In this document: positions 2,058-20,303 of the stretch, one piece after another
How positions within the stretch are numbered: position 1 is the first letter of the stretch
Layout of the letters: each line of letters opens with the position of its first letter
Assembly: GCF_006376685.1 (NCBI RefSeq)
Contig: NZ_VEWL01000001.1
Span: forward strand, 351,869-375,868
Length of the DNA: 24,000 bases
Direction of reading: 5' to 3'
Source of the DNA: Ochrobactrum teleogrylli
Lineage (GTDB): Bacteria > Pseudomonadota > Alphaproteobacteria > Rhizobiales > Rhizobiaceae
Position numbers and translations under genes: made by a program
Notes under the pieces: model-generated
Seen by the model: only the letters and a program-made list of their open reading frames with translations
The model's database searches: none
What the model was told of the DNA's origin: nothing

Positions 2058-2813
2058 TTATTGCCCGCCCAACCGTTTCATCGTTTTCTTCAAGGTCGAA
2101 ATGCTTTGATATCCCGCTTCGACACTGGCAATGGCAAGCGGTATGCCCTCCGCACGTTTACGCATGACATGCGATACCCGCAGGCGCTGCCGCCATTCGA
2201 CAAAACTCATGCCGGTCTGGAGACGGAACTTGCGCGTCATGGTGCGGCGACTCATGCCGACTTCATCCGCCCAGTCGTCAATCGTGAGATCGAGACCGGG
2301 ATTATCCAGAAGGCTGCGACACAGCTTGCGCAACGGTTTATCGGTCGGCAGCGAAACGACATAGGGCTGTTCTTTCGCCGAGCGAACTTCGTCCAGAATA
2401 AGCGCTGTCAGATGCTGGCCGCGCCCGCGCTCATCATAGAGCACCGGTTCTTCGGCCAGAGCCTGCACGCTGGCGTCCAACAGGGGGGAAACTTTCAAAA
2501 CGCGCGTCGGCTCCCAATGATCGCGCAGGACCGATTCTTCAATAAAGACCGCATGCATTTCGACCGAGCCATAAATATCGACGCTGTGCGGCACATCGGG
2601 CGGCAGAAGCACGGCATAACCGCTCGGCAGCATGAAAGCGCCATCTTCGGTTTGCGCCGTCATATAGCCACTATTGCTATAGAGAAGCTCGCCGCGCCGG
2701 TGACTATGCCAGCCGGACGAGGCGCTTTTCTCATAGTCGCGCCGCATCACCGCCAGAGGGCGTGCGATGTCCTGATAGTCGATGGCATGTTTCGGTCGCG
2801 TGCGAATTTCCAT
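2058..2813 (-). CDS. AraC-family transcriptional regulator (cupin-like N-domain plus C-terminal HTH)
   Basis: 251 aa. N-terminal cupin-like WHSHRRGELLYS...PPDVPHS. C-terminal AraC HTH region LTIDDWADEVGMSRRTMTRKFRLQTGMSFVEWRQRLR. Divergent from a TonB-dependent siderophore receptor. Confidence 0.9.
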   Translation of the reverse strand: MEIRTRPKHAIDYQDIARPLAVMRRDYEKSASSGWHSHRRGELLYSNSGYMTAQTEDGAFMLPSGYAVLLPPDVPHSVDIYGSVEMHAVFIEESVLRDHWEPTRVLKVSPLLDASVQALAEEPVLYDERGRGQHLTALILDEVRSAKEQPYVVSLPTDKPLRKLCRSLLDNPGLDLTIDDWADEVGMSRRTMTRKFRLQTGMSFVEWRQRLRVSHVMRKRAEGIPLAIASVEAGYQSISTLKKTMKRLGGQ

Positions 2814-2825
2814 TTTGGCCCAATT

Positions 2826-2840
2826 TGACTGAAATTGTCA
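2826..2840. promoter_or_regulatory. TGA-N9-TCA element (TGACTGAAATTGTCA), an IRO/RirA-box-like site
   Basis: Matches the TGA-N9-TCA iron-responsive operator pattern described for rhizobial RirA regulons, with extended 4-bp inverted arms TGAC/GTCA. It lies 13 nt upstream of the AraC-family start codon. Confidence 0.3.
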
Positions 2841-2950
2841 TATTTAAATGGAATTGCAAAATTTTGACCCGAATGCAACCAAGATTGGCCTGACTCACCA
2901 AACTGTCCCGAATATATTCGCTCGCGCAACGCATTGATATGTGTGAGTAA

Positions 2951-2974
2951 ATTAGAATTATTCTGAATTCTGAA
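2951..2974. promoter_or_regulatory. ICE/Irr-box-like site ATTAGAA-TTA-TTCTGAA followed by a tandem TTCTGAA
   Basis: 12 of 14 match to the Iron Control Element consensus TTTAGAA-N3-TTCTAAA. The right half-site is directly duplicated (TTCTGAATTCTGAA, 2961-2974). It lies just upstream of a possible -35 TTGCGC, about 90 nt upstream of the receptor start. Confidence 0.4.
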
Positions 2975-3064
2975 CTTGCGCAACAATAAAAAATAATCGC
3001 TATAGCCGCTGCTTTGATGGGCTGCGGACAGTAGCCGTTTTGCAGGAACGGCAGGAGAACAGAG

Positions 3065-5269
3065 TTGAAGACCAGCAGGGACACCGTGCGCAATACAGAT
3101 CGCATTCACAACAGCAGACGCGCCGGATCGCTGCTCAAAACCGTGCTTCTCGCTAGCGTGGCGCTTGGCGCTGTGGCCGTTCCGGCATTGGCCCAGGACA
3201 CGGGCGTCATTCAGCTCAACACCATCGAGGTGCAGACCTCCGGTGACAAAGGGCCACGCGTTCCCGTCGAGGGCTATATTGCTGAATATAGCCGCGCCGC
3301 CACCAAGAGCGACACGCCGATCCGCGAAACACCGCAGTCGATTTCCGTTGTCACGCGCGACAATATGAATGATCGCGCCGTCTCGTCGGTGAGTGAAGCA
3401 CTGTTGTACAGTGCCAATGTGAACGGTCAGCGTTATGGCGCGGATGTGCGCTCGGATTATTATACCATTCGTGGTTTCCCGGCTGATCTCTATCTTGATG
3501 GCATCCGTATTCCGCAGATAGCCAACCAGACCGGCGGTTATTCGGGCTTCGTGGTCGAACCCTATTCGCTCGAAAGCGTGGAAGTTCTGCGCGGTCCAAG
3601 TTCCGCGCTGTTTGGCCAGAGCAATGTCGGCGGTATCGTCAATATGGTCAGCAAGCAGCCGCAGGCCGAGGCATCCAATGAGGTCTATCTGCGTGGCGGC
3701 AGTTTCCAGCGCAAGGAATTCGGCTTCGATCTGACGGGGCCGATCAACAACGACCCGCGTTTCACCTATCGCCTGAACGGCATGATCCGCGATGCCGACA
3801 CGTCCTACGATCTGGGCAAGAACAACCGTATTGCCATCAATCCGAGCTTCGCCTGGCGTCCGGATGCGGATACCAGCCTGATTGTTTCGGGCGGTTATCT
3901 CAAGGATGATTTGGGACAGGCGGGCGTGATCGTTCCGGCCTATGGCAGCGTGCTGCCGAACCCGACCGGCCAGAGTATTCCGCGTGATTTCACCGATGGC
4001 GATCCGCGCATCGCGACCTATAAGAAGGAAATCGGTTACGTTGGCTATCAGTTCGAGCATCGCTTCAACGACACGTTCACGCTGCGCCAGAACTTCCGCT
4101 ATTCGCATCTGAAGACCGATTATCGCAACCTGTTTGCGGGCGTGCTGCCGACCAGTGGCTGGAATGGCAGAACGCTGCCGCGCACCAATTATCTGGCACA
4201 GCCCGAACTCGATTCAATTGCCTTCGACACGCAGCTTGAATCGCGCTTCGATACCGGCCCTCTGGAGCACACTTTGCTGGTCGGCGTTGATCAGCAATGG
4301 CAGCGCCTCGACAATTATACTGGCTCGGCGGCTGGTCCGTCGCAGGACCTGTTCAACCCGACCTTCAATCAGCCGCTGACGCCGGTGAAGGCGACGACGC
4401 GTCTTCTGCAAAACCAGTATCAGACCGGCATTTATGTGCAGGATCAGATCGAAGCAGGCAATCTGCGCGTGACGCTCGGCGGTCGCAAGGACTTTGTGAA
4501 GGTCGATTCCGAACAGACGACGCTCTCGACAGGTCGTAGCGTCGACTATGAGCAGGACCCTGAAAAGTTCACGGGCCGTGCGGGCATAGCCTATGTCTTT
4601 GACAGTGGCTTTGTGCCTTATGCGCTCTATTCGACGTCCTTCCTGCCGACGCTGACGCTGGCGGATACGCCGCTCAAGCCGACCACGGGCACGTTGAAGG
4701 AAGTGGGCATTAAATACGCCCCGGAAGGCGCGAATTACAGCGTTACGCTTTCGGCCTTCGAAGCTGAACAGCAGAATGTCGTCAATCGTATTTCCGGCGT
4801 CTACTATCAGACGGACGAAGTGCGCGTGCGTGGCGTCGAGCTGGAAGGCACGGCCCAATTGTGGGATCGCCTGAACCTGACGGCTGCCATGAGCTTCCAG
4901 GACCCGGAAGTCAGCGAAAGCCAGACGCCTGCCCAGATTGGCAAGCTGCCTTATACCGTGCCGAAGGATCAGCAGTCGTTGTTCGTCAGCTATAATGTGC
5001 CGCTGCCGGATAACCTCAAGGGCGATCTCGTTCTTGGCGGCGGTGTACGACGCATCGGCAAGACCGCTGGCGATACGCTGAACACGTTCTTCGTGCCGTC
5101 CTACACGCTGGTGGATGCCTTCCTGCGCTATGATCTTGGCAACTATCGCCTTCAGGTGAATGCCTATAATCTCGGCGACAAGAAATATGTGGCGGGCTGC
5201 AATTCGACCAGCCAGTGCTATTACGGTCAGGGCCGCTCCATCGTGGCGACAACGAGTGTGAAATGGTAG
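3065..5269 (+). CDS. TonB-dependent siderophore receptor (FhuA/FhuE-like), 734 aa
   Basis: TTG start with AGGAGA RBS. Signal peptide ending ALA|QD. TonB box IQLNTIEVQ. Plug-domain motifs (RETPQSISVVT, VEVLRGPSSALFG). A long beta-barrel ending in the terminal aromatic residue ...TTSVKW. Confidence 0.92.
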   Translation: MKTSRDTVRNTDRIHNSRRAGSLLKTVLLASVALGAVAVPALAQDTGVIQLNTIEVQTSGDKGPRVPVEGYIAEYSRAATKSDTPIRETPQSISVVTRDNMNDRAVSSVSEALLYSANVNGQRYGADVRSDYYTIRGFPADLYLDGIRIPQIANQTGGYSGFVVEPYSLESVEVLRGPSSALFGQSNVGGIVNMVSKQPQAEASNEVYLRGGSFQRKEFGFDLTGPINNDPRFTYRLNGMIRDADTSYDLGKNNRIAINPSFAWRPDADTSLIVSGGYLKDDLGQAGVIVPAYGSVLPNPTGQSIPRDFTDGDPRIATYKKEIGYVGYQFEHRFNDTFTLRQNFRYSHLKTDYRNLFAGVLPTSGWNGRTLPRTNYLAQPELDSIAFDTQLESRFDTGPLEHTLLVGVDQQWQRLDNYTGSAAGPSQDLFNPTFNQPLTPVKATTRLLQNQYQTGIYVQDQIEAGNLRVTLGGRKDFVKVDSEQTTLSTGRSVDYEQDPEKFTGRAGIAYVFDSGFVPYALYSTSFLPTLTLADTPLKPTTGTLKEVGIKYAPEGANYSVTLSAFEAEQQNVVNRISGVYYQTDEVRVRGVELEGTAQLWDRLNLTAAMSFQDPEVSESQTPAQIGKLPYTVPKDQQSLFVSYNVPLPDNLKGDLVLGGGVRRIGKTAGDTLNTFFVPSYTLVDAFLRYDLGNYRLQVNAYNLGDKKYVAGCNSTSQCYYGQGRSIVATTSVKW

Positions 5270-6129
5270 TGAGTTTCTCACGACGTGAATTTTTTGTGGG
5301 GGCGGCTTTGGCCGCCCTTATGTCTTCTGTTCGGGCCGAGACGCCGCGTAAGGTTGTCACGCTCGAATGGGCGGAAACGGAAATTGCTTTGTCGCTCGGC
5401 ATTCGCCCTCTGGGCGTTGCCGATCTGGCGGGCTATCGCCAGTGGGTCAATATCGAGAATGACGGGCTTGCCGATGCGGCCGATGTGGGTGGACGGCAGC
5501 AGCCGAGCCTTGAAGCGCTAACACGGCTGAAACCAGACCTGATCCTCACATCGGCGTTGCGCCATAAGGCGATTGCCGATCGCCTCAAGGCGATTGCACC
5601 GACGGTGCTGCTCGACGGCGCATCCGATAGCGCCGATCTCTTGCAGAATATGAAATCAAATCTTGCTGTTGCCGCAAGTGCTCTGCAATGCGAGGCGGAA
5701 GGCAGGGCCGCGTGGCAATCTTTCGAATACGGCCTGTCGGCAGCGCGGGCGAAACTATCCGGCCCATTGCCTGTCGTGATTGCACAGCCTTTGCCCGGTG
5801 TGGCGCGATTGAGAATATTCACGACCAATTCTGCCGTGATGAAAACGATGGTGCAAGCTGGCTTCTCGGAAGCAGTCGACCGCGGCGTGCAGCCCTTTGG
5901 TTTTACGACATTCGGGTTGGAAGAGCTTGCCACGCTAGCGCCGGAGACACGGCTTTGCCTGTTGGATGATGCGACGCCGAAGGAACTGACGGAAAGCGCA
6001 ATCTGGCCGGTCCTGCCTGTGGTCAGCGCTGGTCATATTTATCATCTCGGAGGCGATATTTGGCCTTTTGGCTCGACACGCTCCATGACGCGGCTGGTTG
6101 AGCGGACGTTAGCGGCGTTAACTGCCTGA
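5263..6129 (+). CDS. Periplasmic iron-siderophore ABC substrate-binding protein (FhuD/FecB-like) with a Tat-type signal
   Basis: I chose the start ATG at 5263 (MVVSFSRREFFVGAALAALMSSVRA|ETP, twin-arginine motif). It overlaps the receptor stop (ATGGTAG). PRKVVTLEWAETEIALSLGIRPLGVAD and KPDLILTS are typical of cluster-8 siderophore-binding proteins. Confidence 0.8.
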   Translation: MVVSFSRREFFVGAALAALMSSVRAETPRKVVTLEWAETEIALSLGIRPLGVADLAGYRQWVNIENDGLADAADVGGRQQPSLEALTRLKPDLILTSALRHKAIADRLKAIAPTVLLDGASDSADLLQNMKSNLAVAASALQCEAEGRAAWQSFEYGLSAARAKLSGPLPVVIAQPLPGVARLRIFTTNSAVMKTMVQAGFSEAVDRGVQPFGFTTFGLEELATLAPETRLCLLDDATPKELTESAIWPVLPVVSAGHIYHLGGDIWPFGSTRSMTRLVERTLAALTA

Positions 6130-6138
6130 CATATGAGA

Positions 6139-6163
6139 AAAGCCCCGGTTGAACCGGGGCTTT
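6139..6163. terminator. Bidirectional rho-independent terminator between convergent genes
   Basis: AAAGCCCCGG-ttgaa-CCGGGGCTTT perfect 10-bp stem. T-run on the plus strand (TTTGTTGTTT) and A-run on the other side. It lies between the binding-protein stop (6129) and the acoC-like stop (6170). Confidence 0.7.
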
Positions 6164-6169
6164 GTTGTT

Positions 6170-7531
6170 TCAGGCAACGGCGCGGATGCATTCGCCAAGA
6201 ATACGCAGTACTTCGGCGCGTTCCTCGATTTGCGGCATATGTCCGCAACGCTGGAAGATATGCACGCCGACTTTTCCGGGCAGCCCATGGGCGTGGCTGA
6301 CGGGAATGATCCGATCTTCCGCACCGAAGATCAGCCGCACAGGGATCGGCAATCCGGCTATGGTTGACCGCAGATCGAAGGTCTGCGTGCCATCGGTGAA
6401 GAACCGTTCCGCAATCGCGCTTTGCGCGGCGCGCAATTCGGTATCAGCGGCTTGGGCAACCGTGGCATTGATGAAAGGCCGCGTGAGCAGGCTTTCGTCG
6501 CTGACCAGCAGTTTCAGCCAAGGGATGATGCTCGCTTCGCTTTTGGCGGCGATCAGGCCCTTGGTGAAGGCGCCGTTGATTTCAGGGCCGAGACCGGCGG
6601 ACGAAATCAGCACCAGCGAGCGCACATCCACGATGCCGCGTGCGGCAACGGTCGCCGCAACGCCACCACCAAAGGAATGACCGCCAAGCACGCAGGCGTT
6701 CACGCCAACGGCGGCAAGTGTGGCTTCAACGGCCTCGGCGATCACATCGACGCTCTCCGGCACCGTGCGCGTGGAAGCACCGTGTCCGGGAAGGTCAAGC
6801 GCCAGAACCGGATGGCCGAGTGTTGCCCCTGCGAACAGGCCGCGCCATGAATTGAGGTCGGCGGCGAAACCGTGAATTAGGACAACAGGCAGTTTTCCGG
6901 CTTCACCCTCACGCAGCCAGACTGCATTGAGCGGTGCAGCGGAACCGGCGGTAGGTCTTCGTGCGGGGGGTGCAACCGGTTGGCTTACAGCGCCAGCCGC
7001 AACCGCAGCTTGGGCAGAGCCAATCTTCGCCTCGACATCCTTTTTCTGGACGCGTCCCTTGGGGCCGGAACCTGCAATCGCCTCAAGATCGATGCCAGCC
7101 TCCCGGGCCAGCCGGCGTGCAAGCGGCGTTGCACGCACGGCTGTGTCCTGAGCGGTAGCAGCTTGGGAGGTAGAAACGACCGGTTCGACAGGTGGGGGGC
7201 CATCCTCCCGAACCGGTACTGGCGCGCTCTGCGAGGGAGCAGGCTGCGCATCGGCGGGGCGCTCAACGGATGGTGGTGCTTTGCGCTCTTCGCCTTCTTC
7301 GTAAATCCACGCGACAGCCTGACCGACTGGCACAACAGTGCCCTCGGCGGCGCTCACATCTGCAAGAATGCCGCTGGCCGGTGCGTCCACTTCCATGGCC
7401 GCCTTGTCGGTTTCGATTTCGAACAGGAGCTGACCCTTCGTGACGGTATCGCCATCCTTGGCATACCAGCGCGAAATCTGGCCGGTCTCCATATCCATGT
7501 CGACTTTCGGCAGGATGACTTCCACTGCCAT
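6170..7531 (-). CDS. acoC: AcoC-type E2 component: lipoyl domain, E3-binding (PSBD) domain and alpha/beta-hydrolase domain
   Basis: Lipoyl domain [55 protein letters not shown]. The C-terminus is not a 2-oxoacid acyltransferase domain. It is an alpha/beta hydrolase ([13 protein letters not shown], nucleophile elbow GHSFGG, C-terminal GHMPQ), as in AcoC of acetoin dehydrogenase systems. Confidence 0.85.
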
Positions 7532-7533
7532 GG

Positions 7534-8532
7534 TCAGCGCACTCCCCTGGCAAGATCGCGGGCGCTTTTGAGAATGTCCGGCACCTGCGGCACGGTCGCG
7601 CGTTCAAGATCGGGATTGTAAGGGATCGGCGTCTCGGCGCCGCCAAGGCGGACAATCGGGGCGTCGAGATAATCGAAAGCATCGCTTTCGGCGACGATTG
7701 CAGAGATTTCCGCGCCGATGCCGAGTGTTTTCACAGCTTCATAGACGCAAAGCAGCTTCGAGGTTTTCTTGACGCTTCTGATGATCGTGTCGCGATCAAT
7801 TGGGCGCACGGTGCGCAGATCGATGACTTCGACGTCGATGCCTTCCTTGGCCAGTTCTGCCGCCGCATCCAGCGCCTTGTGCACCATAATTGCGGTCGCG
7901 ACGATGGTGAGATCACGGCCCTCGCGCACCACATCGGCCTTGCCGATGGGAACGGTATAATAGCCTTCCGGCACTGGCCCCTTCATCTTGTAGAGCAGCT
8001 TGTGCTCAAAAATCATCACCGGGTCGGGGTCTTCGACGGCTGCAAGCAACATGCCCTTGGCGTCATGCGGGGTGGAAGGCTGCAGGACCTTCAGGCCGGG
8101 CACATGGCCGAGCCAGGCTTCAAGGCTCTGGCTGTGCTGTGCGGCGGCGCCCGTGCCGGAACCGGCAGGAAAGCGCATGACCAGCGGCACCGAAACCGCG
8201 CCACCCAGCATATAGCGGATTTTTGCGGCCTGATTGACGATCTGCTCCATGGCGAGCGCAGCAAAATCGGAAAACTGGAATTCGAAAATCGGGCGCATGC
8301 CGGTCAGCGCTGCACCGACGGCGACGCCCGCACCGCCCAGTTCAGAAATCGGCGTGTCCATGACGCGGTCTTCGCCGAAGCGATGCACGAGATCGCCGGT
8401 TACCTGAAACGCGCCGCCATAGACGCCGATGTCCTCGCCCATCAGGAAAACACGGTCGTCGCGCTCCATGGCAATCGCCATGGCTTCCTGAATGGCTTGC
8501 GAATAGCTCAACTCGCGGATGGTGGTGTCCAT
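7534..8532 (-). CDS. acoB: Thiamine-diphosphate-dependent dehydrogenase E1 beta subunit (AcoB-like)
   Basis: 332 aa. Transketolase-like pyrimidine-binding and C-terminal domains ([31 protein letters not shown]). A 2-nt gap to both neighbours indicates an operon. Confidence 0.9.
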
Positions 8533-8534
8533 GA

Positions 8535-9569
8535 TCAGATTTCGTCCGTATATACGTCGCGGGTCAGATTGGTGAGGTCGGGAGAAGGGCTGTTGCGGGC
8601 ATACTCAATCGCGTCGGCGATTTCCTTCTCGACATTGGCCCGGATGGCTTCGATCTCGTTGTCGTCGATCACGCCATAAGCCTTCAGATCGGCCTCGAAA
8701 TGCGCGATGGGGTCGCGATTATTGGCCCAATCCTCGATCTCTTCCTTGGTGCGATAACGGTTGCGGTCGCTCTTGGAATGACCGCGAAGGCGATAGGTCT
8801 TGTTCTCGATCAGCGACGGGCCTTCCCCGCGCCGCGCACGCTCCACGGCCTCGTTGATGGCTTCGGCAACGTCGGAAAGGTTGTTGCCGTCCACGACCTT
8901 GCCGGGCATAGCATAGGCCGATGCGCGGTCCGCGACATTCACCACCGCCGTTGAACGCTTGGTTGAAGTAGACATGCCGTAGCCATTGTTTTCGCAAACG
9001 AAAACGACCGGCAACTTCCAGACGGAAGCCATGTTGAGCGCTTCATGGAAAGCGCCTTCATTGTTGGCGCCATCGCCGAAGAAGGACACAACAACCTTGT
9101 TGCTCTTCTGCTTCTTGGCGGAAAGCGCAGCACCCACTGCAATCGGAATGCCACCGCCGACAATGCCATTTGCGCCGAGATTGCCTTTGGATACATCAGC
9201 AATGTGCATGGAGCCGCCGCGACCCTTGCAATAGCCGGTTTCCTTGCCGAAGAACTCGGCAAACATGCGCTTCACATCGGCACCCTTGGCGATGCAATGA
9301 CCATGGCCGCGATGGGTAGAGGTGATCATGTCATCTTCGGTCAAAGGCAGGCAGGAACCCATGGCGCTTGCTTCCTGTCCGATGGACAGGTGCATCGTGC
9401 CGTGAATAAACCCCCGCGTGTAACTTTCTTCCGCGCCTTCTTCGAAGCGGCGGATGAGATACATCTTGTGCAGCGCTTCCTTCAGCTGTTCGGGAGAATA
9501 GGTGCGGAAAGCGAAGGGCAGGTTGTGGCGATCTGCGGCCTGCGCGTCAATCTTTCTGGCCTGAACCAT
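8535..9569 (-). CDS. acoA: Thiamine-diphosphate-dependent dehydrogenase E1 alpha subunit (AcoA-like)
   Basis: 344 aa. ThDP motif [43 protein letters not shown]. Immediately downstream of the COG4091 oxidoreductase gene. Confidence 0.9.
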
Positions 9570-9580
9570 GGTGCGGCTCC

Positions 9581-10900
9581 TTATGCTCCGTAAACGAGCT
9601 TGTCCTGGCGGGCGCGCAGTTCGGCGATCTTCGATCCCGGCGCGACGGCAGCATTGTCATAGGTGATGAGTTCGCCCTTCCTGATCGGCTTTGTCACGCT
9701 GCCGCCCTGAAGAAGACCGCAGGGGATGGCATGCGCTGTACGCGCTTCGCCAGACGTCATGATCCAGGCGCGGTAGCAATATTCGCCAATGGCATCGAGC
9801 TTTTCGCCCGGCTGCATATCCTTCTTGGCCACAGCGCAGACTTCGGCCACCGGCTTTGCCAGGGGCACCATGTCCGGCTTGCCGTAAAGCACGACACGGG
9901 CGCAGGTGAGGGGAACTTCGAGCGAGGTCAGGTGATAAGGGCGGTGGAAGGTGAAGTAAGGGCCTTTGCCCATTTTCAGATCTTCCATGCGTTCCGAAAC
10001 ACGCGGATGCGACATGTCGGCCACAACGAAGACGCCGGGCGCAACACCCTTGCCGATGGAGTAATCCACGACGCCGACTTTCGAAAGCACACCGCCGTCC
10101 TTTTCAGGAATCAGCGTCTTGTTGAGCTGGTCGAGCGTTGCGGCAGGGCCGTGCATGCCCGGCTTGTCCGGCACCAGACCCGTGGCATTGGCGATGGCTG
10201 CCATTTCCACCATGGTCTTGGAGCCATCGACGAACTCCACCAGCATACGCACATTCATGTTGCGGCGTTTGGCTTCTTCCAGATAATCGTCGGGAATGGC
10301 GTCGATATTGAGCGGGTTGTTCTTGCCCTTGCCAGCGGCAACGATGGGATGCCCCATGGCTGAAACGAACTCGATCAGTTCCATGCAGGACGATGGTTCG
10401 TCGCCGGCACCCAGCGAATAGGTGACGCCCAGACGGTCGGCTTCTGCCTTGAGGTAGGCACCGATGGTGACATCGGCTTCGACATTCATCATGACGAGAT
10501 GCTTGCCATGTTCCATGGCGCGCAGGCCGATTTCCGCGCCGACAGCCGGAACGCCGGTGGCGTCGATGACCACATCGATCAAATCATTTTCGAGGATCAG
10601 ACTGGCATTGTCCGTAACGGCGACCTTGCCGCCTTCCATGGCGGAGGTCAGGTCGGAAGCGTTTGAAACTTGCCTGCCGTGGCCTTCTTCCTGATAGGCG
10701 ATATCAACCGCTTTCAAAGCGTTCGGAACACGCAGTTCGGAAATGGCGCCGATTTCGATGCCGGGCATATGCGCCACGCGGGTCACGATGTCGGTGCCCA
10801 TTTCGCCGGAGCCGATCAGCCCGATACGGATCGGCCGTCCGCTGTCAGCACGCGCTTGCATATCACGTGCCAAGCCCGTCAACGCCACATTCGTCGCCAT
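9581..10900 (-). CDS. NAD(P)-dependent oxidoreductase of the COG4091 / homoserine-dehydrogenase-like plus SAF-domain family (DRL/DXR-II-type), 439 aa
   Basis: Rossmann motif IRIGLIGSGEMGTD near the N-terminus. GAGDEPSSCMELIEF and GKGKNNP motifs. A C-terminal SAF-like beta-clip (AVAKKDMQPGEKLD..., KPIRKGELITYDN). AGGAGG RBS. First gene of the operon. Its size and architecture match the family that contains Brucella abortus DRL. Orthology is not verified. Confidence 0.8.
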   Translation of the reverse strand: MATNVALTGLARDMQARADSGRPIRIGLIGSGEMGTDIVTRVAHMPGIEIGAISELRVPNALKAVDIAYQEEGHGRQVSNASDLTSAMEGGKVAVTDNASLILENDLIDVVIDATGVPAVGAEIGLRAMEHGKHLVMMNVEADVTIGAYLKAEADRLGVTYSLGAGDEPSSCMELIEFVSAMGHPIVAAGKGKNNPLNIDAIPDDYLEEAKRRNMNVRMLVEFVDGSKTMVEMAAIANATGLVPDKPGMHGPAATLDQLNKTLIPEKDGGVLSKVGVVDYSIGKGVAPGVFVVADMSHPRVSERMEDLKMGKGPYFTFHRPYHLTSLEVPLTCARVVLYGKPDMVPLAKPVAEVCAVAKKDMQPGEKLDAIGEYCYRAWIMTSGEARTAHAIPCGLLQGGSVTKPIRKGELITYDNAAVAPGSKIAELRARQDKLVYGA

Positions 10901-10958
10901 CTTTTCCTCCTGATGTTCCTCCAGACGCCTTCGCGCCTCTCTTCCCTTACCCGATAAT

Positions 10959-10970
10959 GAACATTTGTTT
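10959..10970 (-). promoter_or_regulatory. Shared operator-like motif, copy 1 (reads AAACAAATGTTC toward the DRL-like/aco operon)
   Basis: Exact 12-mer GAACATTTGTTT on the plus strand, 58 nt upstream of the start at 10900. In the minus orientation it sits 3 nt downstream of a -35-like TTGACT (10979-10974). The same 12-mer recurs at 11066-11077 and 20306-20317. Confidence 0.6.
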
Positions 10971-11064
10971 CCAAGTCAATACGAGTGTACATTTATCACG
11001 CGCCCCAGACCTGTTATTCCTTACCGTGCTTTATCGCTTGTGAACAAACATTGGTCTGCTATAA

Positions 11065-11079
11065 AAAACAAATGTTCTG
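11065..11079 (+). promoter_or_regulatory. Shared operator-like motif, copy 2 (AAAACAAATGTTCTG toward the gat-type PTS operon)
   Basis: This 15-mer is the exact reverse complement of 20304-20318. It lies 118 nt upstream of the IIC start at 11198. It forms an inverted pair with copy 1, about 107 bp centre to centre, in the divergent intergenic region. Confidence 0.6.
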
Positions 11080-11197
11080 CCCGGTGTTTCAAAATGCAAC
11101 ACAACAAAATCTTGTGGGGGCATGCGGCGCGGAACTTGATACAAGCGTTCAAACGGCCTGGCATTCGTTGGAGGATGGCCGGGGGGAGGAGAAAACT

Positions 11198-12607
11198 ATG
11201 GACGCATTTCTAAGCGGCCTGAAATCGGCCATCGATACATTGGGAGCGACGGTCCTGCTCCCTATCGTCATTTTCATTATAGCCGTGGTTCTTGGCGCTA
11301 AGGTGGGCAAAGCCTTCCGCGCTGCCGTGACCATCGGCGTCGCCTTCATCGGTATCAACCTCGTATTGGGGCTGATGTTCACCTCCATTGGCGAGGTGGC
11401 TCAGGCGATTGTTACCAATACGGGCATCAAGCGCGATATCGTCGATGTGGGCTGGCCTTCGGCTGCGGCCATCGCTTTCGGTTCGTCCGTGGGGCTTTGG
11501 GTCATTCCGGTCGGCATTCTGGTCAACATCGCGCTGCTTTTGATGCGCTGGACCCGCACGCTCAATGTCGATGTTTGGAACTTCTGGCACTTTGCCTTTG
11601 TCGGCTCGCTTGTCGTCGCCGCAACGGACAATCTCGCCTATGGCATTATCGTTGCAGCTCTTGTTGCGGCTCTGTCGCTGCTGTTCGCTGACTGGTCGGC
11701 ACGCGCCGTACAGCAGTTCTATGGCGTTCCGGGCGTTTCCGTTCCGCATCTGGCATCGGCGCAAATTCTGCCGATTGCCATCGTGCTCAACTGGATCATG
11801 GATCGCATTCCTGGCATCAACAAGATCCACATCAGCACCGAAACCATCGAACGCCGTTTCGGCGTCTTCGGCGAGCCGGTGGTTCTGGGCCTGATTATCG
11901 GTCTCGTGCTTGGTCTCATCGCTTTCTACAATTCAGGCGATTTCGGCCATGTGCTGGCCAAGGTGCTGGGCACCGGCATGACGCTTGCCGCCGTGATGCT
12001 GCTTCTGCCGCGCATGGTCAAAATCCTGATGGAAGGCCTGCTGCCGGTTTCTGATGCCGCACAGGAATTCGTGCGCAAGCGCACCGGCGACCGCGAATTG
12101 CTGGTCGGTCTCGATTCGGCAATCCTGATCGGCCATCCGGCTGCGATCTCGTCGTCGCTGATCCTCGTGCCGATTGCGATCATCCTGTCGGTGATACTGC
12201 CGGGCAACCGCGTCATCCTGTTTGCCGATCTTGCGGTTATTCCGTTCATCGTCGCCATGACTGCGCCGCTGTTGAAGGGCAACGTGTTCCGCATGGTTGT
12301 CGTCGGCACGGTGACGCTCGCCATCGGCTTCTATGTGGCCAATGCGCTGGCTCCGCTCTTCACGAGCGCTGCCGTGTCATCTGGCTTCAAGTTGCCGGAA
12401 AACGCGTTGCAGATCACTTCGGTGGTCGACGGCTTCCTGTGGGTGCCTTATGTCATCATCGCCGCAATCCAGTGGTTAGGCGTTGTTGGAATCGCAGTTC
12501 TTGCAGTCGTCATCGCCGCAGCGTTCATTCTCTATCGTCGCAACACCGACGGTTGGGAACGCGCTGCCGGTGCGGAAGACGAACCAGCCGAGCAGAACAA
12601 CTGGTAA
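11198..12607 (+). CDS. PTS galactitol-family EIIC permease (GatC-like), 469 aa
   Basis: I chose the start ATG at 11198 (GGAGGA RBS 7 nt upstream). MDAFLSGLKSAIDTLGATVLLPIVIFI..., VDVGWP, NVDVWNFWHF, FGEPVVLG and GLDSAILIGHPA are collinear with E. coli GatC as I recall it. Multiple TM segments. The upstream 71 codons of the track ORF lack any RBS or homology. Confidence 0.88.
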   Translation: MDAFLSGLKSAIDTLGATVLLPIVIFIIAVVLGAKVGKAFRAAVTIGVAFIGINLVLGLMFTSIGEVAQAIVTNTGIKRDIVDVGWPSAAAIAFGSSVGLWVIPVGILVNIALLLMRWTRTLNVDVWNFWHFAFVGSLVVAATDNLAYGIIVAALVAALSLLFADWSARAVQQFYGVPGVSVPHLASAQILPIAIVLNWIMDRIPGINKIHISTETIERRFGVFGEPVVLGLIIGLVLGLIAFYNSGDFGHVLAKVLGTGMTLAAVMLLLPRMVKILMEGLLPVSDAAQEFVRKRTGDRELLVGLDSAILIGHPAAISSSLILVPIAIILSVILPGNRVILFADLAVIPFIVAMTAPLLKGNVFRMVVVGTVTLAIGFYVANALAPLFTSAAVSSGFKLPENALQITSVVDGFLWVPYVIIAAIQWLGVVGIAVLAVVIAAAFILYRRNTDGWERAAGAEDEPAEQNNW

Positions 12608-12670
12608 GGCGCAAAAGCAATATTGGCCGCATACCGGAGAGGTATGCGGCTATCTGCAATGGAGGATGGA

Positions 12671-13132
12671 ATGGCGAACGGCCTGACGGCTTTTCTCGAC
12701 CCTGAAGCGATTGAGCTGCAGAGCGAGGCCAAAACCAATGAGGAAATTATCCGTATTCTGGCGGCGAAGCTGGAACGGCTCGGCTATGTAAAGCCCAGCT
12801 ATGCGGATGCGGTCGTGAAGCGGGAACAGACCATGCCAACCGGTCTGCCGCTGGAGCGCGAAGAAAACGTTGCCGTTCCGCATACCGACCCCGAGCATGT
12901 CCTGAAAGCGGGCATCGCTTTTGCGACGCTGAAAACCCCCGTCATCTTCGCCAATATGGAAGATCCGGAAGAGGACGTTCCCGTCGGATTTGTCTTCCTG
13001 CTTGCCATCAATGACAAGGACAAACAGATCGAGACCTTGCAACAGGTGATGGCGACCATTCAAAATGAGGACGCGCTCGAGAATCTCAAGAAATCGCGCA
13101 CATTGAGTGACGTGGAAGCTGCGCTCGGTTAA
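12671..13132 (+). CDS. PTS EIIA component, type 2 (GatA/mannitol-fructose family)
   Basis: About 153 aa from the ATG at 12671 (GGAGG 5 nt upstream). Candidate phosphorylatable His in NVAVPHTDPEHV. Length and layout are like GatA. The start is ambiguous (alternatives 12623, 12644, 12659). Confidence 0.8.
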   Translation: MANGLTAFLDPEAIELQSEAKTNEEIIRILAAKLERLGYVKPSYADAVVKREQTMPTGLPLEREENVAVPHTDPEHVLKAGIAFATLKTPVIFANMEDPEEDVPVGFVFLLAINDKDKQIETLQQVMATIQNEDALENLKKSRTLSDVEAALG

Positions 13133-13146: not shown

Positions 13147-13434
13147 ATGGCCAAAATGAAAACGATTCTCTTTGCCTGCGGCACCGGCGTCGCAACATCC
13201 ACTGCCGTGAATGCTGCCGTCACCGAAGAGATGAAAAAGCGCGGGCTGACCTTCAACGCCCAGCAGGCCAAGGCGACCGAAGTGCCGTCTCTGGCTGACA
13301 ATGTGGATTTCATCGTTTCCACGACGCCTATTTCCGCCGCAGTCGAGAAGCGGGTCATCAAGGGCCTCGCATTCCTGACCGGCATCGGCAAGGACAAGGT
13401 TCTGGACGAAATCGAAGCCGAATTGCGCAAGTAA
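13147..13434 (+). CDS. PTS EIIB component (GatB-like, Cys-phosphorylated)
   Basis: 95 aa. MAKMKTILFACGTGVATST contains the active-site Cys loop typical of GatB / lactose-family IIB. GGAGGA RBS upstream. Confidence 0.85.
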   Translation: MAKMKTILFACGTGVATSTAVNAAVTEEMKKRGLTFNAQQAKATEVPSLADNVDFIVSTTPISAAVEKRVIKGLAFLTGIGKDKVLDEIEAELRK

Positions 13435-13513: not shown

Positions 13514-14548
13514 TCAGTTCGGAACGGAATGTCCGATGCGCCGGAGCATTTCGGCGGCACTTTCCTCGTCGGTGATGAACACCGTTGGACGCAGAAGTTT
13601 CATCGCGCCGAGAAGCGCTTCGATCTTTTCCTTGCCGCCGGATGTCAGGATGCGTTGCGGCGTGTTCTGCAAGCTTTCGATGCTGGCCGACATGACGCGC
13701 TCATGCACCGGATCATCGACGATACGGCCATCGGCATTGTAGAAATGGAACAGAACGTCGCCGACCGCACCATTGGCGCGCAGCGATTGTTTCTGCTCTT
13801 CATCGACGAGCCCCACGCGGTAGGACGTGCTGCTGGCGGTCTCGATGCCACCAATGCTGAGCAACACCATGTCGAGATCTTCCGCCATGTCCAGCACTGT
13901 GTTCAGGCCACAACGTTCAATCAGGGCTGTGCGAGTCTCCTTGCTGTCCACGAGGGCGGGCGCGGGGATAAGGTAGCCTTCGCCTTGCAGCATCTGCGCG
14001 AATTGCCAGGCAAATTCGGGCGGGTTGGAGCGTCGTGGCTGCACAATGCCGCCGAGAAGCGAAATGACCTTAAGATCGTTCACCGGACGCGAGCCGATAT
14101 GCTGCAAGGTGCTGGATAAAGTGCGGCCCCAGCCGACACCAATGCGCATGCCGTGCTGGATTTTTTCCGACAGATAAGCGCCGGTCGCAGCACTTATCGG
14201 AGGAATCGGATCGGTCTCGGCAGAGGAGAGGGGCGCGACAATGGCCTGTTCCAGCCTGAACGCCTTTTCAAGCGCCGCTTCCAGCGCGGTCAAAGCCGAA
14301 AGCTTACCTTCAATGGTGATCTTCACCTCGTTGCGGGCGCGGGCATCGGCAAGAAGACGCACAATGGTCACGCGGCCAACACCCAGCGCATCGGCAATAT
14401 CGCTCTGGGTCATCTGCTCGACATAATACATCCACGCCGCACGGGTTCTGAGGCGGCTGGTGCGGTTTTCCGCTGCAACGCCTTCGGAGCCCACCAGAAG
14501 GTCGTTGGTTTCAGCTGCGTTCCGTTTCCCCTTGGCGGTCTTTCTCAA
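13514..14548 (-). CDS. SorC/DeoR-type sugar-binding transcriptional regulator
   Basis: HTH region RAAWMYYVEQMTQSDIADALGVGRVTIVRLLADAR, followed by a SorC sugar-phosphate-binding domain (IGVGWGRTL, VISLLGG, VLLSIGG, GDVLFHFYN). TTG start at 14548 (GGGGA upstream). The start is uncertain. Confidence 0.85.
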   Translation of the reverse strand: MRKTAKGKRNAAETNDLLVGSEGVAAENRTSRLRTRAAWMYYVEQMTQSDIADALGVGRVTIVRLLADARARNEVKITIEGKLSALTALEAALEKAFRLEQAIVAPLSSAETDPIPPISAATGAYLSEKIQHGMRIGVGWGRTLSSTLQHIGSRPVNDLKVISLLGGIVQPRRSNPPEFAWQFAQMLQGEGYLIPAPALVDSKETRTALIERCGLNTVLDMAEDLDMVLLSIGGIETASSTSYRVGLVDEEQKQSLRANGAVGDVLFHFYNADGRIVDDPVHERVMSASIESLQNTPQRILTSGGKEKIEALLGAMKLLRPTVFITDEESAAEMLRRIGHSVPN

Positions 14549-14684: not shown

Positions 14685-15422
14685 ATGCTGCGCACACTTT
14701 CCGATGAAATCGCCGTCAATCTGAAAGACCGTCTGCGTGACGTGCGTTACGTGATCAGACGCGCCCGGCAAAGTTCGCGTGCGCCCGAAACCAGCCTGCC
14801 CGCACCGGAAGCGCTTCTGGGCCATGCCGCAGGCGTGATGGATACGGCGCTGACCGCCGCCGAGGCGATCTCAATCTCGATTATTTCGTCTGAACCGGCC
14901 AAACATCATGGCGCGCCACAGATGCGCAGCCTATCCTTTTATTTCGGCACCGGTGCGGAAGGTGCGCGCGGTTTCCGCAGCGATATGTATTATTTCCTCA
15001 AGGGAACGATGCGGCGCTACGGACTTGAAAACGCACTTATCCACGAAGCGGCTTTTTCGGTCATCCACGGGCGTCTGTTGCGCAAGCACGCGGAACTTCT
15101 GCGCGATCCTCGAAAGGTTGCACAGGCGCTGGCCGCGCTTTATCTGGAATATCTGGCTGAAAGCCCTGTCCGCTTGACGTCGTTGGAAGTCTCGTGCGAC
15201 CCGGAAAATCTGCGCAAGGCGGAAGTGGTCGGGCTTGCCGCTACTTGCCTCGCTTGCGGGCTGGCGACCGTAAAGCCTGCCGATCTCGCCGATATCGATC
15301 CGCTGGAAAGCGTGTTTATGGTGCTGGAAGCACGCTATGAACGGCTGGTGGATGCGGCAGAGACCCGCGACGCGAAGAAGCTCGAAACCCTCTTCGCGAC
15401 GCTGATTGCCCACCTACCTTAA
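14685..15422 (+). CDS. Hypothetical protein (245 aa), no family recognised
   Basis: ATG with AGGAGG upstream. Codon usage looks native. Mostly helical, with no TM segment or signal peptide seen. It is divergent from the SorC-family gene. Its 3' end overlaps the HPr-EI gene 3' end by 9 nt. Confidence 0.55.
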   Translation: MLRTLSDEIAVNLKDRLRDVRYVIRRARQSSRAPETSLPAPEALLGHAAGVMDTALTAAEAISISIISSEPAKHHGAPQMRSLSFYFGTGAEGARGFRSDMYYFLKGTMRRYGLENALIHEAAFSVIHGRLLRKHAELLRDPRKVAQALAALYLEYLAESPVRLTSLEVSCDPENLRKAEVVGLAATCLACGLATVKPADLADIDPLESVFMVLEARYERLVDAAETRDAKKLETLFATLIAHLP

Positions 15423-17414
15423 GTCGCCAAACAGATCGGCGATGATCTTCTTGGCGCGGGGAATGGAAGCCGGGCTCATGCTGAGCTCGGTCAGTCCCAT
15501 GCGGATAAATTCCGGGATCAAATCCGGCTTGCCTGCCGCTTCTCCGCACATGCCGACCATGATGCCCGCTGTCGTGGCTGCTTTCGCGGTCATTTCAATG
15601 GCCGCCATTACAGCTGGATGATGCACGTCGTTGAGCCTCGCGACCGTCGGGTTGAGACGGTCTGCCGCCATGACATATTGCGTCAGATCATTGGTGCCGA
15701 TGGAGAAGAAGGCGGATTCCTTGGCCAGCTGATCGGCTGCGAAAACCGCTGCCGGTGTTTCGATCATAACACCCAGTTCAAACGTGCCGTAAGGCTTGCC
15801 TTCTGCTGTCAACTCGCGCTCGCATTCGGCAATCAGGCTTTTTGTCGCCCGGATCTCCTCGATATCGGAAACCATCGGCAACATGACCTTCAGTTTGCCG
15901 TGCACTGAGGCGCGAAGCAGGGCGCGCAATTGCGGCTTAAACACCTCCGGGCGGTCAAGGCACATGCGGATGCCGCGCCAGCCGAGGAACGGGTTTTCCT
16001 CCTCGGGAAACTCGATGCCGGCGACGGGCTTGTCACCGCCGATATCGAGTGTGCGGACAATGACAGACTGGGGGGCGAAAGCGCGCAGAAGTGATGCATA
16101 GGTTTCCATCTGCATGTCTTCGGACGGCAAATGGATATGCTTCATGAACAGAAGCTCGGTGCGGAACAGGCCGACGCCCATCGCGCCTGCGGTCTGGGCC
16201 GCTTCGATTTCCTCCAAAGCGCCGAGATTGGCCGCAACCTCAATCACCACGCCATCGGCGCGGCGCGGCGTATAGTCACGATACTTGTCCAGCGCACGCT
16301 GTTCTTCCGTGGCCTTGGCAATGCGGCTTTCGATTTCGGCCAGAACGGTGGCATTCGGGTCGTGATGGACAATGCCCGCACTGCCATCGACGGCAACCTG
16401 TCGCGCTGTCTTCAGTCTATGAACAGCGTCGCCAAGTCCAAGCACTGCCGGGATTCCGTGCGTGCGCGCGATGATCGCGACATGCGAGGTCGCGCCGCCA
16501 TGGCCGCAAACCACGCCGCGAATGCGCTTCAGCGGTGCGCGGGCCAAGTCCCAAGCGCCGATGTCTTCGGCGATCAGAATGGCACCGTCCGGTAGTCCGT
16601 CGAGATTGAGGTCTTCCTGACCGAGCAAGGCGAGACAAATCTGGCGGCTGATTGCGTGCACATCGTCGGCGCGGGCATTGAGATAGGGATCGTCGAGGTT
16701 GGCGAATTGCTGCGCGACCGTCGAGGCAGCGCCGAGCGTTGCGGAGACCGCATCCATGCCGCCGCGAATAAGGGCGTGTGCTTCGTCCCGCAGGCTGTCG
16801 TCGGAGGCAATATCCTTCAATGCAGCAACGATGCCGCGATCACTTTCGGCGAGATCGTCGCGCGCGAGCGAATGTTCCATCCGCTCTTGAACAGTTGCGA
16901 CAGCGGCCTCGTAACGGCTGATTTCCGGTGCGATTTCGTGAGGTGCCAGCTTGCCGGTGCCGGGCGTGATTTCGGCAGGGAAAAACGGAAATGCCTCGCC
17001 AAGCGAAAGACCTTCACTGGCGGCAACGCCCTTGATCTGGCCTTCCGGCAACGCTGCAATCGCAACACTCGCGACCGGGGCGGTGACGGGAGCAGTCTCC
17101 ACCACCGCGGCAACGGCTGCGCCGTCATTTTCCTCAAGCCCCGCGCGCGGGTTTTCGAGATAGCCGATCAGCGCTTCCAGTGCTTCAATCGCGTCAGCCC
17201 CTTCGGCGCTGACGGTGACTTCGTCATTTTCCTTCACGCCAAGCAGCATGAGCTTAACGGAGCTTTTCGCGCTGACGCTTTTGCCGCTCTTTGCGATCTC
17301 GATATTACACTCGAACCCCTTGGCGAGCTTGACGAAACGAGTGGCGGGGCGCGCATGCAGCCCTTCATGCACCCGGACGATGGTGGAGCGTTCCATTTGA
17401 GAGCCTTGGATCAT
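15414..17414 (-). CDS. Fused HPr - Enzyme I (phosphoenolpyruvate-protein phosphotransferase), 666 aa
   Basis: N-terminal HPr domain (VHEGLHARPATRFV, GKSVSAKSSVKLMLLG). An Ala/Val-rich linker. Then EI with active-site GGATSHVAIIARTHGIPAV and C-terminal PEP-binding motifs FFSIGTNDLTQY and GMCGEAAG. The start is either 17414 or the ATG at 17396. Confidence 0.9.
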   Translation of the reverse strand: MIQGSQMERSTIVRVHEGLHARPATRFVKLAKGFECNIEIAKSGKSVSAKSSVKLMLLGVKENDEVTVSAEGADAIEALEALIGYLENPRAGLEENDGAAVAAVVETAPVTAPVASVAIAALPEGQIKGVAASEGLSLGEAFPFFPAEITPGTGKLAPHEIAPEISRYEAAVATVQERMEHSLARDDLAESDRGIVAALKDIASDDSLRDEAHALIRGGMDAVSATLGAASTVAQQFANLDDPYLNARADDVHAISRQICLALLGQEDLNLDGLPDGAILIAEDIGAWDLARAPLKRIRGVVCGHGGATSHVAIIARTHGIPAVLGLGDAVHRLKTARQVAVDGSAGIVHHDPNATVLAEIESRIAKATEEQRALDKYRDYTPRRADGVVIEVAANLGALEEIEAAQTAGAMGVGLFRTELLFMKHIHLPSEDMQMETYASLLRAFAPQSVIVRTLDIGGDKPVAGIEFPEEENPFLGWRGIRMCLDRPEVFKPQLRALLRASVHGKLKVMLPMVSDIEEIRATKSLIAECERELTAEGKPYGTFELGVMIETPAAVFAADQLAKESAFFSIGTNDLTQYVMAADRLNPTVARLNDVHHPAVMAAIEMTAKAATTAGIMVGMCGEAAGKPDLIPEFIRMGLTELSMSPASIPRAKKIIADLFGDLR

Positions 17415-17429: not shown

Positions 17430-17810
17430 TCAGTCGCTGATGACGATCATATGTCCTTCGCGCAGAACGGCAACCAAAGCGGCGCCGTCAACTTCGCTGG
17501 CACAGATTTCGCCCGGACGGTCGGTCGAGTCGGCCCCGGTAAACGATATCACCACATGGCCGATGTCACGCACTTTCTGCCAGGCGCTTGCTCCAACAGC
17601 GGTAATGTTTGCCGTTATGTCGCCAATGGTGATGAGCGCGCCAACCGGCGGCGCAGCTTCCTGCGGACCGTCTTCGACTGCATGCATCACCGAGACTTCC
17701 GCGAGTTCGGGCGGAGAGCCCTCTGCAAACAGGATCAGAACGCCGCCTTCGGCGAGATCAGCCACTTCGGGACCAATTGCGGTGATCCGTGTCTTGAGAT
17801 GTATCGGCAT
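17430..17810 (-). CDS. srlB: PTS glucitol/sorbitol-family EIIA (SrlB-like)
   Basis: MPIHLKTRITAIGPEVADLAEGGVLILFAEGSPPELAEVSVMH... is collinear with E. coli SrlB (MTVIYQTTITRIG...). I chose the ATG at 17810 (AAAGGA RBS) over the GTG at 17834 on the basis of homology. Confidence 0.85.
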   Translation of the reverse strand: MPIHLKTRITAIGPEVADLAEGGVLILFAEGSPPELAEVSVMHAVEDGPQEAAPPVGALITIGDITANITAVGASAWQKVRDIGHVVISFTGADSTDRPGEICASEVDGAALVAVLREGHMIVISD

Positions 17811-17839
17811 GGCGGCAGTCCTTTTCAATTTCACTCAAT

Positions 17840-19737: not shown

Positions 19738-19813
19738 TTCTCCTCCTCCACGCCCGTCCTCGTCGGGCGATACCCCTTGAACATTGCCACCCAGTTCACG
19801 GTTGGACACACGC

Positions 19814-20242: not shown

Positions 20243-20303
20243 TTTCTCCTCCTCCACCGGAGGCTTCGTGCGTCTTTGAGCGCCGCCAGTCTCCGTCTCT
20301 TCA

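Follow-up and report, generated by a model that had tools for sequence, protein, structure and literature searches.

A DXR-II-led operon with an acetoin dehydrogenase-like E1/E2 set in Ochrobactrum teleogrylli: a proposed module for 2-C-methyl-D-erythritol catabolism

The 24,000-nucleotide (nt) stretch of Ochrobactrum teleogrylli DNA analyzed here (contig NZ_VEWL01000001.1, positions 351,869–375,868), referred to in the following as the window, encodes an E1α–E1β–E2 set resembling acetoin dehydrogenase on the minus strand at 6170–9569, as placed by the initial annotation. The set stands behind a gene for DXR-II (also called DRL), an enzyme known from isoprenoid biosynthesis, and near two phosphotransferase systems (PTS). 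We propose, with a probability of roughly 0.6, that the E1/E2 set carries out the last step of a self-contained, SorC-regulated module for the catabolism of 2-C-methyl-D-erythritol (ME), which would proceed through DXP (1-deoxy-D-xylulose 5-phosphate) to acetyl-CoA and glyceraldehyde 3-phosphate (GAP). 1-Deoxy-D-xylulose is possibly a substrate of the module as well. The pathway was inferred from conserved gene context.

Pfam analysis of the E2 protein identified a Biotin_lipoyl domain (residues 4–75), an E3_binding domain, or peripheral subunit-binding domain (PSBD; residues 132–167), and an Abhydrolase_6/1 domain (residues 215–442); the 2-oxoacid_dh domain (PF00198) was not among the matches. 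The lipoyl-lysine motif IETDKAAM contains K43, the GHSFGG motif occupies residues 284–289, and the hydrolase triad has its Asp and His at positions matching those of a genuine AcoC from Burkholderia. Against the NCBIfam equivalog NF011457, "acetoin dehydrogenase E2", the protein scored 433 bits, with a cut-off of 307. These results confirm the first description of the protein as an AcoC-type E2, with a lipoyl domain, a PSBD and a hydrolase fold carrying GHSFGG. The initial annotation had also stated that no E3, AcoR, AcoX or butanediol dehydrogenase is encoded in the 24 kb, and this was borne out: tblastn searches of the window with Lpd, AcoR, a second σ54 regulator, AcoX, a short-chain dehydrogenase/reductase (SDR), LipA and LplA gave no match at E ≤ 1e-3.

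The gene upstream of the set had been described as "DRL-like" and as heading the operon. The second statement was correct, while the first turned out to be an understatement. The protein matched the Brucella abortus DRL structure (PDB 3UPL) with an E-value of 2.8e-218, aligning residues 1–435 to residues 1–435 without gaps at 75% identity. All the residues listed for DXR-II function and family identity in PMC3847144, comprising signature, substrate-binding and dimer positions, are retained (G121, E174, F178, K191, K193, T229, H250, R320, Y322 and V351). By these sequence criteria, the lead gene qualifies as a full-length, genuine DXR-II. The gaps between DXR-II, E1α, E1β and E2 are 11, 2 and 2 nt, respectively, and the four genes form one operon. 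A scan of positions 5900–11300 with the σ70 consensus found no promoter.

Genomes, one per GTDB species, were scanned with an alignment of nine DXR-II sequences. The scan returned 80 loci, all from Alphaproteobacteria, with a DXR-II identity of at least 72%; 77 of these had room downstream of DXR-II and could be evaluated, and a locus was counted as linked when E1α started no more than 300 bp downstream. By this measure, 60 of these 77 species loci have E1α directly downstream of DXR-II, with E1β and E2 following. The linkage persists despite exchange of both the E2 catalytic domain and the uptake system. The former is AcoC-type in 22 of the linked loci, a canonical 2-oxoacid_dh domain in another 22, and cut off in 16; the latter is either a Gut PTS, in some cases accompanied by a Gat PTS and HPr–Enzyme I (EI), or an ATP-binding cassette (ABC) transporter with a sugar kinase. 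A SorC regulator, a 210-aa protein and a haloacid dehalogenase (HAD) phosphatase recur in these loci, and in some, such as that on plasmid pRM41A of Sinorhizobium meliloti Rm41, Lpd and LipA follow E2. Since modules orthologous to that of the window can come with a canonical E2 and an Lpd of their own, the AcoC-type E2 and missing E3 seen here are lineage-specific details. The E2 domain swap can be seen by comparing the window (6170–7531, AcoC-type) with the orthologous modules in loci L001 and L002 of the scan (7955–9244). The ABC-type modules often add a Zn-dehydrogenase, a PfkB-type kinase and an FAD-dependent glycerol-3-phosphate-dehydrogenase-like gene (L002 1164–3868 and 19050–20048; L031, L034, L043, L053, L060, L061 and others), the last of which we take to be of the same family as EryB of the erythritol pathway; this set may constitute a branch for a related polyol.

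The same association was found in distant taxa, where a DXR-II homologue search, followed by retrieval of the encoding contigs, yielded nine loci from Firmicutes and Chloroflexi. Eight of them, from Halalkalibacterium halodurans (BH0774), Thermosediminibacter oceani, Priestia megaterium, Chloroflexus sp., Halanaerobium sp., Brevibacillus humidisoli, Jeotgalibacillus malaysiensis and Thermanaeromonas toyohensis, have the order GutM–EIIC–EIIBC–EIIA(Gut)–DXR-II together with E1α–E1β–E2 and a SorC regulator, often accompanied by Lpd, LplA, HPr and EI, and with frequent overlaps between stop and start codons. The ninth, from Thermoanaerobacterium thermosaccharolyticum (L092 3762–11290), has a Gut PTS and DXR-II split by IS elements with two transposases and no E1/E2, and appears to be a decaying module copy. 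In the operons from Firmicutes and Chloroflexi, DXR-II comes directly after EIIA, where the srl operon of enterobacteria has srlD, the sorbitol-6-phosphate dehydrogenase gene. Several of the Firmicute and Chloroflexi operons encode no enzymes besides DXR-II and the complex. Because such minimal operons hold only a PTS, DXR-II and E1/E2, with or without E3, the DXR-II product must be split directly into central metabolites.

Some further features of the Firmicute loci were recorded. The modules contain a conserved open reading frame (ORF) of 104–113 aa with a CxxC...CxxC, zinc-ribbon-like pattern, located after DXR-II or the complex (L088 11417–11758; L089 16271–16585; L093 11460–11774), which is unrelated to the unknown proteins of the alphaproteobacterial modules; loci L100–L102 have unnamed ORFs of similar size. 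A Clostridioides difficile plasmid, pZ1322HCD0102-3 (L094 8058–19008), encodes SorC, E1α, E1β, E2, LpdA, a σ54/PRD-type regulator and PTS IIA–IIB–IIC. Its E1α groups with the DXR-II-linked clade, and there is no DXR-II in the 19 kb covered.

The E1 subunits themselves also set the linked complexes apart. The window E1α and E1β are 55–61% and 52–66% identical, respectively, to the linked subunits from Firmicutes and Chloroflexi, compared with 42–46% for DXR-II itself. In contrast, with the AcoA encoded in an acoR–acoX–acoABC cluster (Burkholderia sp. YI23, locus L096) the window E1α shares only 46% identity, and with PdhA ≈40–42%. In a neighbor-joining tree, all 100 of 100 bootstraps grouped the linked E1α sequences with the SorC-linked C. 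difficile E1α, in a clade apart from AcoA and PdhA. AcoA was represented in this tree by sequences from Burkholderia, Enterococcus, Klebsiella and Thermus, of which the Klebsiella sequence, a 162-aa fragment, is a weak outgroup.

Residues specific to this clade were taken as those at least 95% conserved in 66 linked E1α sequences and absent from four outgroups; they lie in motifs of the active site. Thr58 replaces a Phe, found in the outgroups and in human pyruvate dehydrogenase (PDH), in the GxxHLxxGQEA motif; Ser62 replaces Tyr, and Asn130 replaces Met or Phe. Lys266 and Ser267 lie right behind the GHS histidine loop, with Lys266 two residues past the His. In E1β, the clade residues S125, T127 and G128 are found just N-terminal of the AAQHS histidine. 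Read against what is known of human PDH E1, these substitutions might produce a wider, more polar and cationic pocket that would fit a phosphorylated substrate.

The operon also shares an operator with the PTS genes. A Gat-family PTS operon diverges from the DXR-II operon. Three copies of the exact 12-mer GAACATTTGTTT, and no others, are present in the window; they lie upstream of three operons, those of DXR-II, Gat and Gut (Table 1). The 12-mer was matched 0 times in 100 shuffles. A 10-mer core of the same sequence was found in 22 related loci, always at most 131 bp from the start of DRL, GutM, GatC or, once, the Zn-dehydrogenase. Together, the 12-mer copies, the shuffles and the 10-mer core confirm the earlier claim that the DXR-II and PTS operons have an operator in common. 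The protein that binds it is probably the SorC-family regulator encoded in the window.

In the pathway that we propose, ME would be taken up and phosphorylated by the Gut-type PTS (and, in Brucellaceae, the Gat-type PTS), fed by the HPr–EI protein of the module, yielding MEP (2-C-methyl-D-erythritol 4-phosphate). DXR-II would then work against its biosynthetic direction, oxidizing and rearranging MEP with NADP+ to DXP and NADPH. DXP is, like acetoin, a methyl-ketone acyloin. The thiamine diphosphate (ThDP) of E1 would attack its C2 carbonyl and cleave the C2–C3 bond, as in acetoin, releasing GAP and leaving hydroxyethylidene-ThDP. The two-carbon unit would pass as an acetyl group to the lipoyl arm of E2 and from there to CoA by way of the AcoC-type hydrolase-fold domain, while the housekeeping Lpd, docked on the PSBD, would reoxidize the lipoamide. 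The net reaction would be ME + PEP + NADP+ + NAD+ + CoA → acetyl-CoA + GAP + pyruvate + NADPH + NADH, where PEP is phosphoenolpyruvate. Acting through the 12-mer, the SorC protein is probably the repressor of all three operons and the sensor of MEP or DXP, and the Gat PTS could add a second entry path, by which deoxyxylulose or another methyltetrol perhaps enters.

Two literature reports touch on the ends of this pathway. A sorbitol PTS transports ME into Salmonella, according to the title of Testa et al. (2004) as cited in PMC3994034, and acetoin dehydrogenase forms 1-deoxyketoses, in a condensation that is the reverse of the cleavage proposed here, according to Yokota and Sasajima (1986) as cited in PMC3424233. 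The case for DXP rather than acetoin as the likely substrate is strengthened by the presence of a genuine DXR-II, by the conserved linkage, by the separate E1 clade, and by the minimal operons, which are closed by DXP cleavage.

Several points weigh against this pathway. The DXR reaction is reversible and favors MEP, with Keq about 45, so that the reverse direction would need a pull from the E1 step. The family models make both E1 subunits look like PDH, and a 2-oxo-acid activity is compatible with their sequences. Finally, the scheme gives no role to the presence of two PTS systems in the window, nor to the Zn-dehydrogenase, the glycerol-3-phosphate-dehydrogenase-like gene, the kinase, the HAD phosphatase and the two conserved proteins.

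The same architecture might serve another phosphorylated polyol, such as a hexitol, a pentitol or a branched or deoxy compound. DXR-II would then act as a polyol-phosphate dehydrogenase, and E1 would convert a keto-sugar phosphate (a 1-deoxyketose phosphate, or a 2-ketose phosphate with glycolyl transfer) to an acyl-CoA and a shorter aldose phosphate. Hexitols are the usual cargo of the Gut and Gat PTS families, the operator is common to two PTS systems, and many loci have additional dehydrogenases and kinases, which suggests that there are several substrates; for the DXR-II relatives DLO1 and DLO2, the substrates are unknown (PMC3847144). We nevertheless regard another polyol as unlikely. The window gene falls within the DXR-II clade proper, members of which complement dxr mutants (PMC3847144), and has all the signature residues. 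Oxidation of sorbitol-6-phosphate or galactitol-1-phosphate yields central metabolites with no need for E1/E2; the minimal operons form a closed pathway only when such metabolites arise directly from cleavage of the product. The complex could also be an ordinary acetoin or methylacetoin dehydrogenase, AcoABC, that lies beside DXR-II by chance and borrows a housekeeping E3. The E2 protein does pass the acetoin dehydrogenase equivalog, and the alignment of its hydrolase domain to Burkholderia AcoC extends to the catalytic motifs. However, the window has none of AcoR, AcoX, AcoL and butanediol dehydrogenase, the regulator is of the SorC sugar-phosphate type and the operator is common to PTS operons, the E1α belongs to another clade than the AcoA of the acoR–acoX cluster, and four tests of membership came out negative. 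The linkage to DXR-II, kept across phyla, even outlasts the swap of the E2 domain. We regard an ordinary acetoin dehydrogenase as very improbable.

The PDH-like features raise the alternative of a pyruvate or other 2-oxo-acid dehydrogenase that is co-expressed with the PTS, for example to oxidize PEP-derived pyruvate, and to which DXR-II is functionally unrelated. E1β scored 401 bits against an NCBIfam PDH E1β subfamily (cut-off 321), E1α missed the cut-off of the PDH E1α model TIGR03182 by only 6 bits (387.6 against 393.85), the closest solved structures to the window E1 are those of PDH E1, and a canonical acetyltransferase E2 together with Lpd is found in many of the orthologous modules. 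On the other hand, the linked E1 clade is distinct from PdhA, and the window E1β lacks the lipoyl domain of alphaproteobacterial PdhB and falls below the NF008854 cut-off (about 392 bits against 454), matching only profile positions 137–460. AcoC-type E2 proteins are known only from acyloin-cleaving systems. The module is also present in the strict anaerobes Halanaerobium, Thermosediminibacter and Thermanaeromonas, organisms of a kind that typically oxidizes pyruvate without PDH complexes, and a PDH would leave DXP and MEP without an outlet. We therefore consider this reading improbable. Less probable again would be a biosynthetic module, in which E1 acts as an alternative DXP synthase, joining hydroxyethyl-ThDP from pyruvate or acetoin to GAP and feeding DXR-II for isoprenoids; we give it hardly any weight. 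A mutant PDH E1 can supply DXP in Escherichia coli (PMC3424233), the formation of 1-deoxyketoses by acetoin dehydrogenase is cited in the same source, and DXR-II is biosynthetic in Brucella (PMC3847144). Yet a lipoyl-E2, joined in many loci by E3, would be useless for carboligation, and uptake systems and a SorC repressor of catabolic type go with the module. Organisms that lack the MEP pathway also have it, and the biosynthetic DRL of Brucella is orthologous to a stand-alone copy and not to the module copy.

This distinction emerged from the locus survey, in which two kinds of DXR-II were found in Brucellaceae: one standing alone beside a HAD gene, the other linked to the module. The B. abortus DRL is 87–95% identical to the stand-alone Brucella and Ochrobactrum copies (DXR-II at 10001–11310 in loci L062, L063, L065, L069 and L073), whereas the module-linked copies of Brucellaceae are 95–99% identical to that of the window. 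The window matches locus L008 at 99% identity, which points to a very close relationship with Brucella (Ochrobactrum) haematophila. Since the B. abortus DRL is closer to the stand-alone copy, the Brucella enzyme of isoprenoid biosynthesis appears to be paralogous to the presumed catabolic, module-linked one. Two functional DXR-II paralogs each have been described in O. anthropi ATCC 49188 and Mesorhizobium loti (Carretero-Paulet et al., PMC3847144), one of which is most probably the module-linked enzyme. The same study, from 2013, found functional DXR-II in Finegoldia, where the MEP and mevalonate (MVA) pathways are both absent, and in the MVA-only Chloroflexus, and called the retention of DXR-II beside DXR-I a puzzle (PMC3847144); a 2026 review still saw no pattern in the distribution (PMC13001223). 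With confidence only a little better than even, we suggest that the modules represent an undescribed, cross-phyla route of ME catabolism, in which a Gut PTS, or an ABC transporter and a kinase, would deliver MEP to a reverse DXR-II reaction and to E1/E2, with or without E3. Catabolism would then be the primary, ancestral role of DXR-II, and the biosynthetic DRL of Brucella and Bartonella would go back to a duplicate of the catabolic gene, recruited later, once DXR-I had been lost.

The features of the window are listed in Table 1.

Table 1. Genes and sequence elements of the proposed module in the window.
Feature	Position	Strand	Remarks
Hairpin terminator	6139–6163		11-bp stem with 7 G–C pairs, AAAGCCCCGG...CCGGGGCTTT; between the convergent FhuD-like gene and the E2 gene end
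E2, AcoC-type	6170–7531	−	453 aa; lipoyl domain, PSBD and α/β-hydrolase domain
E1β	7534–8532	−	332 aa; PF02779 and PF02780; without the N-terminal lipoyl domain of alphaproteobacterial PdhB
E1α	8535–9569	−	344 aa; PF00676 (E 2.6e-91); ThDP-binding subunit; member of the DXR-II-linked E1 clade
DXR-II (DRL)	9581–10900	−	439 aa; first gene of the operon; PF21135 DRL catalytic domain; 3UPL match
Operator copy A	10959–10970	+	GAACATTTGTTT; 60 nt upstream of DXR-II
Operator copy B	11066–11077	−	Inverted; DXR-II/Gat-PTS divergent promoter region
Gat-family PTS EIIC	11198–12607	+	PF03611, TIGR00827; probable start is ATG 11198 inside ORF 10985–12607
PTS EIIA, EIIA_2 type	12623–13132	+	Pfam/NCBIfam match
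PTS EIIB	13147–13434	+	PF02302
SorC/DeoR-family regulator	13514–14548	−	Sugar-phosphate-binding; PF04198; co-occurs with the module in other loci
unk245	14685–15422	+	Conserved protein, 245 aa; 55% identity to an Ochrobactrum homologue
HPr–Enzyme I fusion	15414–17414	−	General PTS proteins carried by the module
Gut-type PTS EIIA	17430–17834	−	PF03829
Gut-type PTS EIIBC, SrlE-like	17938–18942	−	PF03612, PF07663
Gut-type PTS EIIC, SrlA-like	18961–19809	−	PF03608 at residues 105–277; real start possibly further downstream
GutM-like activator	19814–20311	−	PF06923; first gene of the Gut-PTS operon
Operator copy C	20306–20317	+	GutM gene start, GutM–unk210 divergent region
unk210	20423–21055	+	All-helical protein, 210 aa; travels with the module in Alphaproteobacteria

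Pfam scans and the SDR tblastn search found no sorbitol-6-phosphate dehydrogenase or other further enzyme in the window module. Two conserved proteins of the module, unk245 and unk210, have no assigned function. The gene for unk245 sits between the SorC and HPr–EI genes, with its 3′ end overlapping the end of the convergent HPr–EI gene by 9 nt, and is kept in the modules of Brucellaceae and Phyllobacterium (46–56% identity). The other protein, unk210, is present in 29 of the 60 linked alphaproteobacterial loci, with two paralogs on S. meliloti pRM41A. It has no Pfam match, and its 497 homologues are nearly all labeled "hypothetical", apart from a single UniRef DUF1266 label. A Foldseek search with its AlphaFold model (pLDDT 78) gave no match in the PDB, the best hit having an E-value of 0.35 and a TM-score below 0.25.

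On the E2 side, the module is flanked by an AraC regulator, a TonB-dependent siderophore receptor and an FhuD-like binding protein (2058–6129), and on the other side by an AcvB/VirJ-like gene and MprF, a lysyl-phosphatidylglycerol synthase-like protein (21078–23995), the ORF of which runs close to the window end. In another Ochrobactrum locus, L004, the flanks consist of a peptidase S41 and msrPQ-like genes instead of the siderophore uptake and acvB/mprF genes. Because the flanks differ between these two loci, the module behaves as an island. It brings its own HPr–EI fusion and complete PTS permeases into a genome of the Rhizobiales, which are usually without sugar-transporting PTS permeases.

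Literature searches on methylerythritol catabolism, on DXP and acetoin dehydrogenase, and on recent DXR-II work found no description of such a module, although their coverage was incomplete and a paper may exist. The papers that were found treat DXR-II only as a biosynthetic alternative and do not discuss its gene context (PMC3847144 included). The components are of known kinds; their combination, the proposed substrate of the complex and a catabolic role for DXR-II appear to be new. Since 2010, DXR-II has been treated purely as an "alternative" biosynthetic enzyme, with a scattered distribution that has no accepted explanation. A catabolic role, if true, would explain why the enzyme is found in bacteria that have no MEP pathway or only the MVA pathway, and in others where it is redundant with DXR-I. 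Phosphorylated acyloins would then be a new class of substrate for acetoin and 2-oxo-acid dehydrogenase complexes, and a sink would be defined for methylerythritol, sources of which include plants, bacterial overflow of 2-C-methyl-D-erythritol 2,4-cyclodiphosphate (MEcPP) and atmospheric 2-methyltetrols formed from isoprene. A natural drain from MEP and DXP to central metabolism would also be relevant to isoprenoid engineering, and the pathway would have a bearing on fosmidomycin-type drug targeting in Brucella, Listeria and relatives of C. difficile.

Among characterized systems, the window set most resembles AcoABCL, as encoded by the acoR–acoX–acoABC cluster of Burkholderia sp. YI23. Both have a heteromeric, ThDP-dependent E1 (PF00676; PF02779 and PF02780) and an E2 that combines a lipoyl domain with an α/β-hydrolase fold containing GHSxGG, Asp and His, and both presumably cleave a C–C bond in a methyl-ketone acyloin and pass the acetyl group to CoA. 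However, the window set is without AcoL, AcoR and AcoX and has a SorC regulator in place of the σ54 activator. Its E2 has a PSBD insert, whereas the YI23 AcoC (L096 9007–10131) has none, and its E1α, at 46% identity and in a separate clade (100/100), is not an orthologue of AcoA. The window set is also linked to DXR-II and to sugar-alcohol uptake, and its proposed substrate is the phosphorylated acyloin DXP. The uptake genes correspond to the srl/gut operon (srlAEBD–gutM–srlR), with GutM and the Gut-family EIIC, EIIBC and EIIA in common, and the Salmonella system is the one that, going by the cited title, carries ME; in contrast to that operon, the window module has no SrlD and brings its own HPr–EI.

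The complex can also be compared with PDH, the E1 of which is the closest solved structure, and with DXP synthase (DXS), which shares the hydroxyethyl-ThDP intermediate with PDH. The half-reaction proposed for the window E1 would be the reverse of the second half of the DXS reaction. It differs from the PDH reaction in that no decarboxylation would take place, and the proteins differ in that the window E1α and E1β fall below the PDH equivalog cut-offs, and a lipoyl domain is missing from the E1β and a 2-oxoacid_dh domain from the E2. DXR-II itself belongs to the same family as the B. abortus enzyme (3UPL/3UPY), is likewise full-length and has the same catalytic and fosmidomycin-binding residues. 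Yet the two are only 75% identical, and the window copy heads a catabolic-looking operon, in which its proposed direction is from MEP to DXP.

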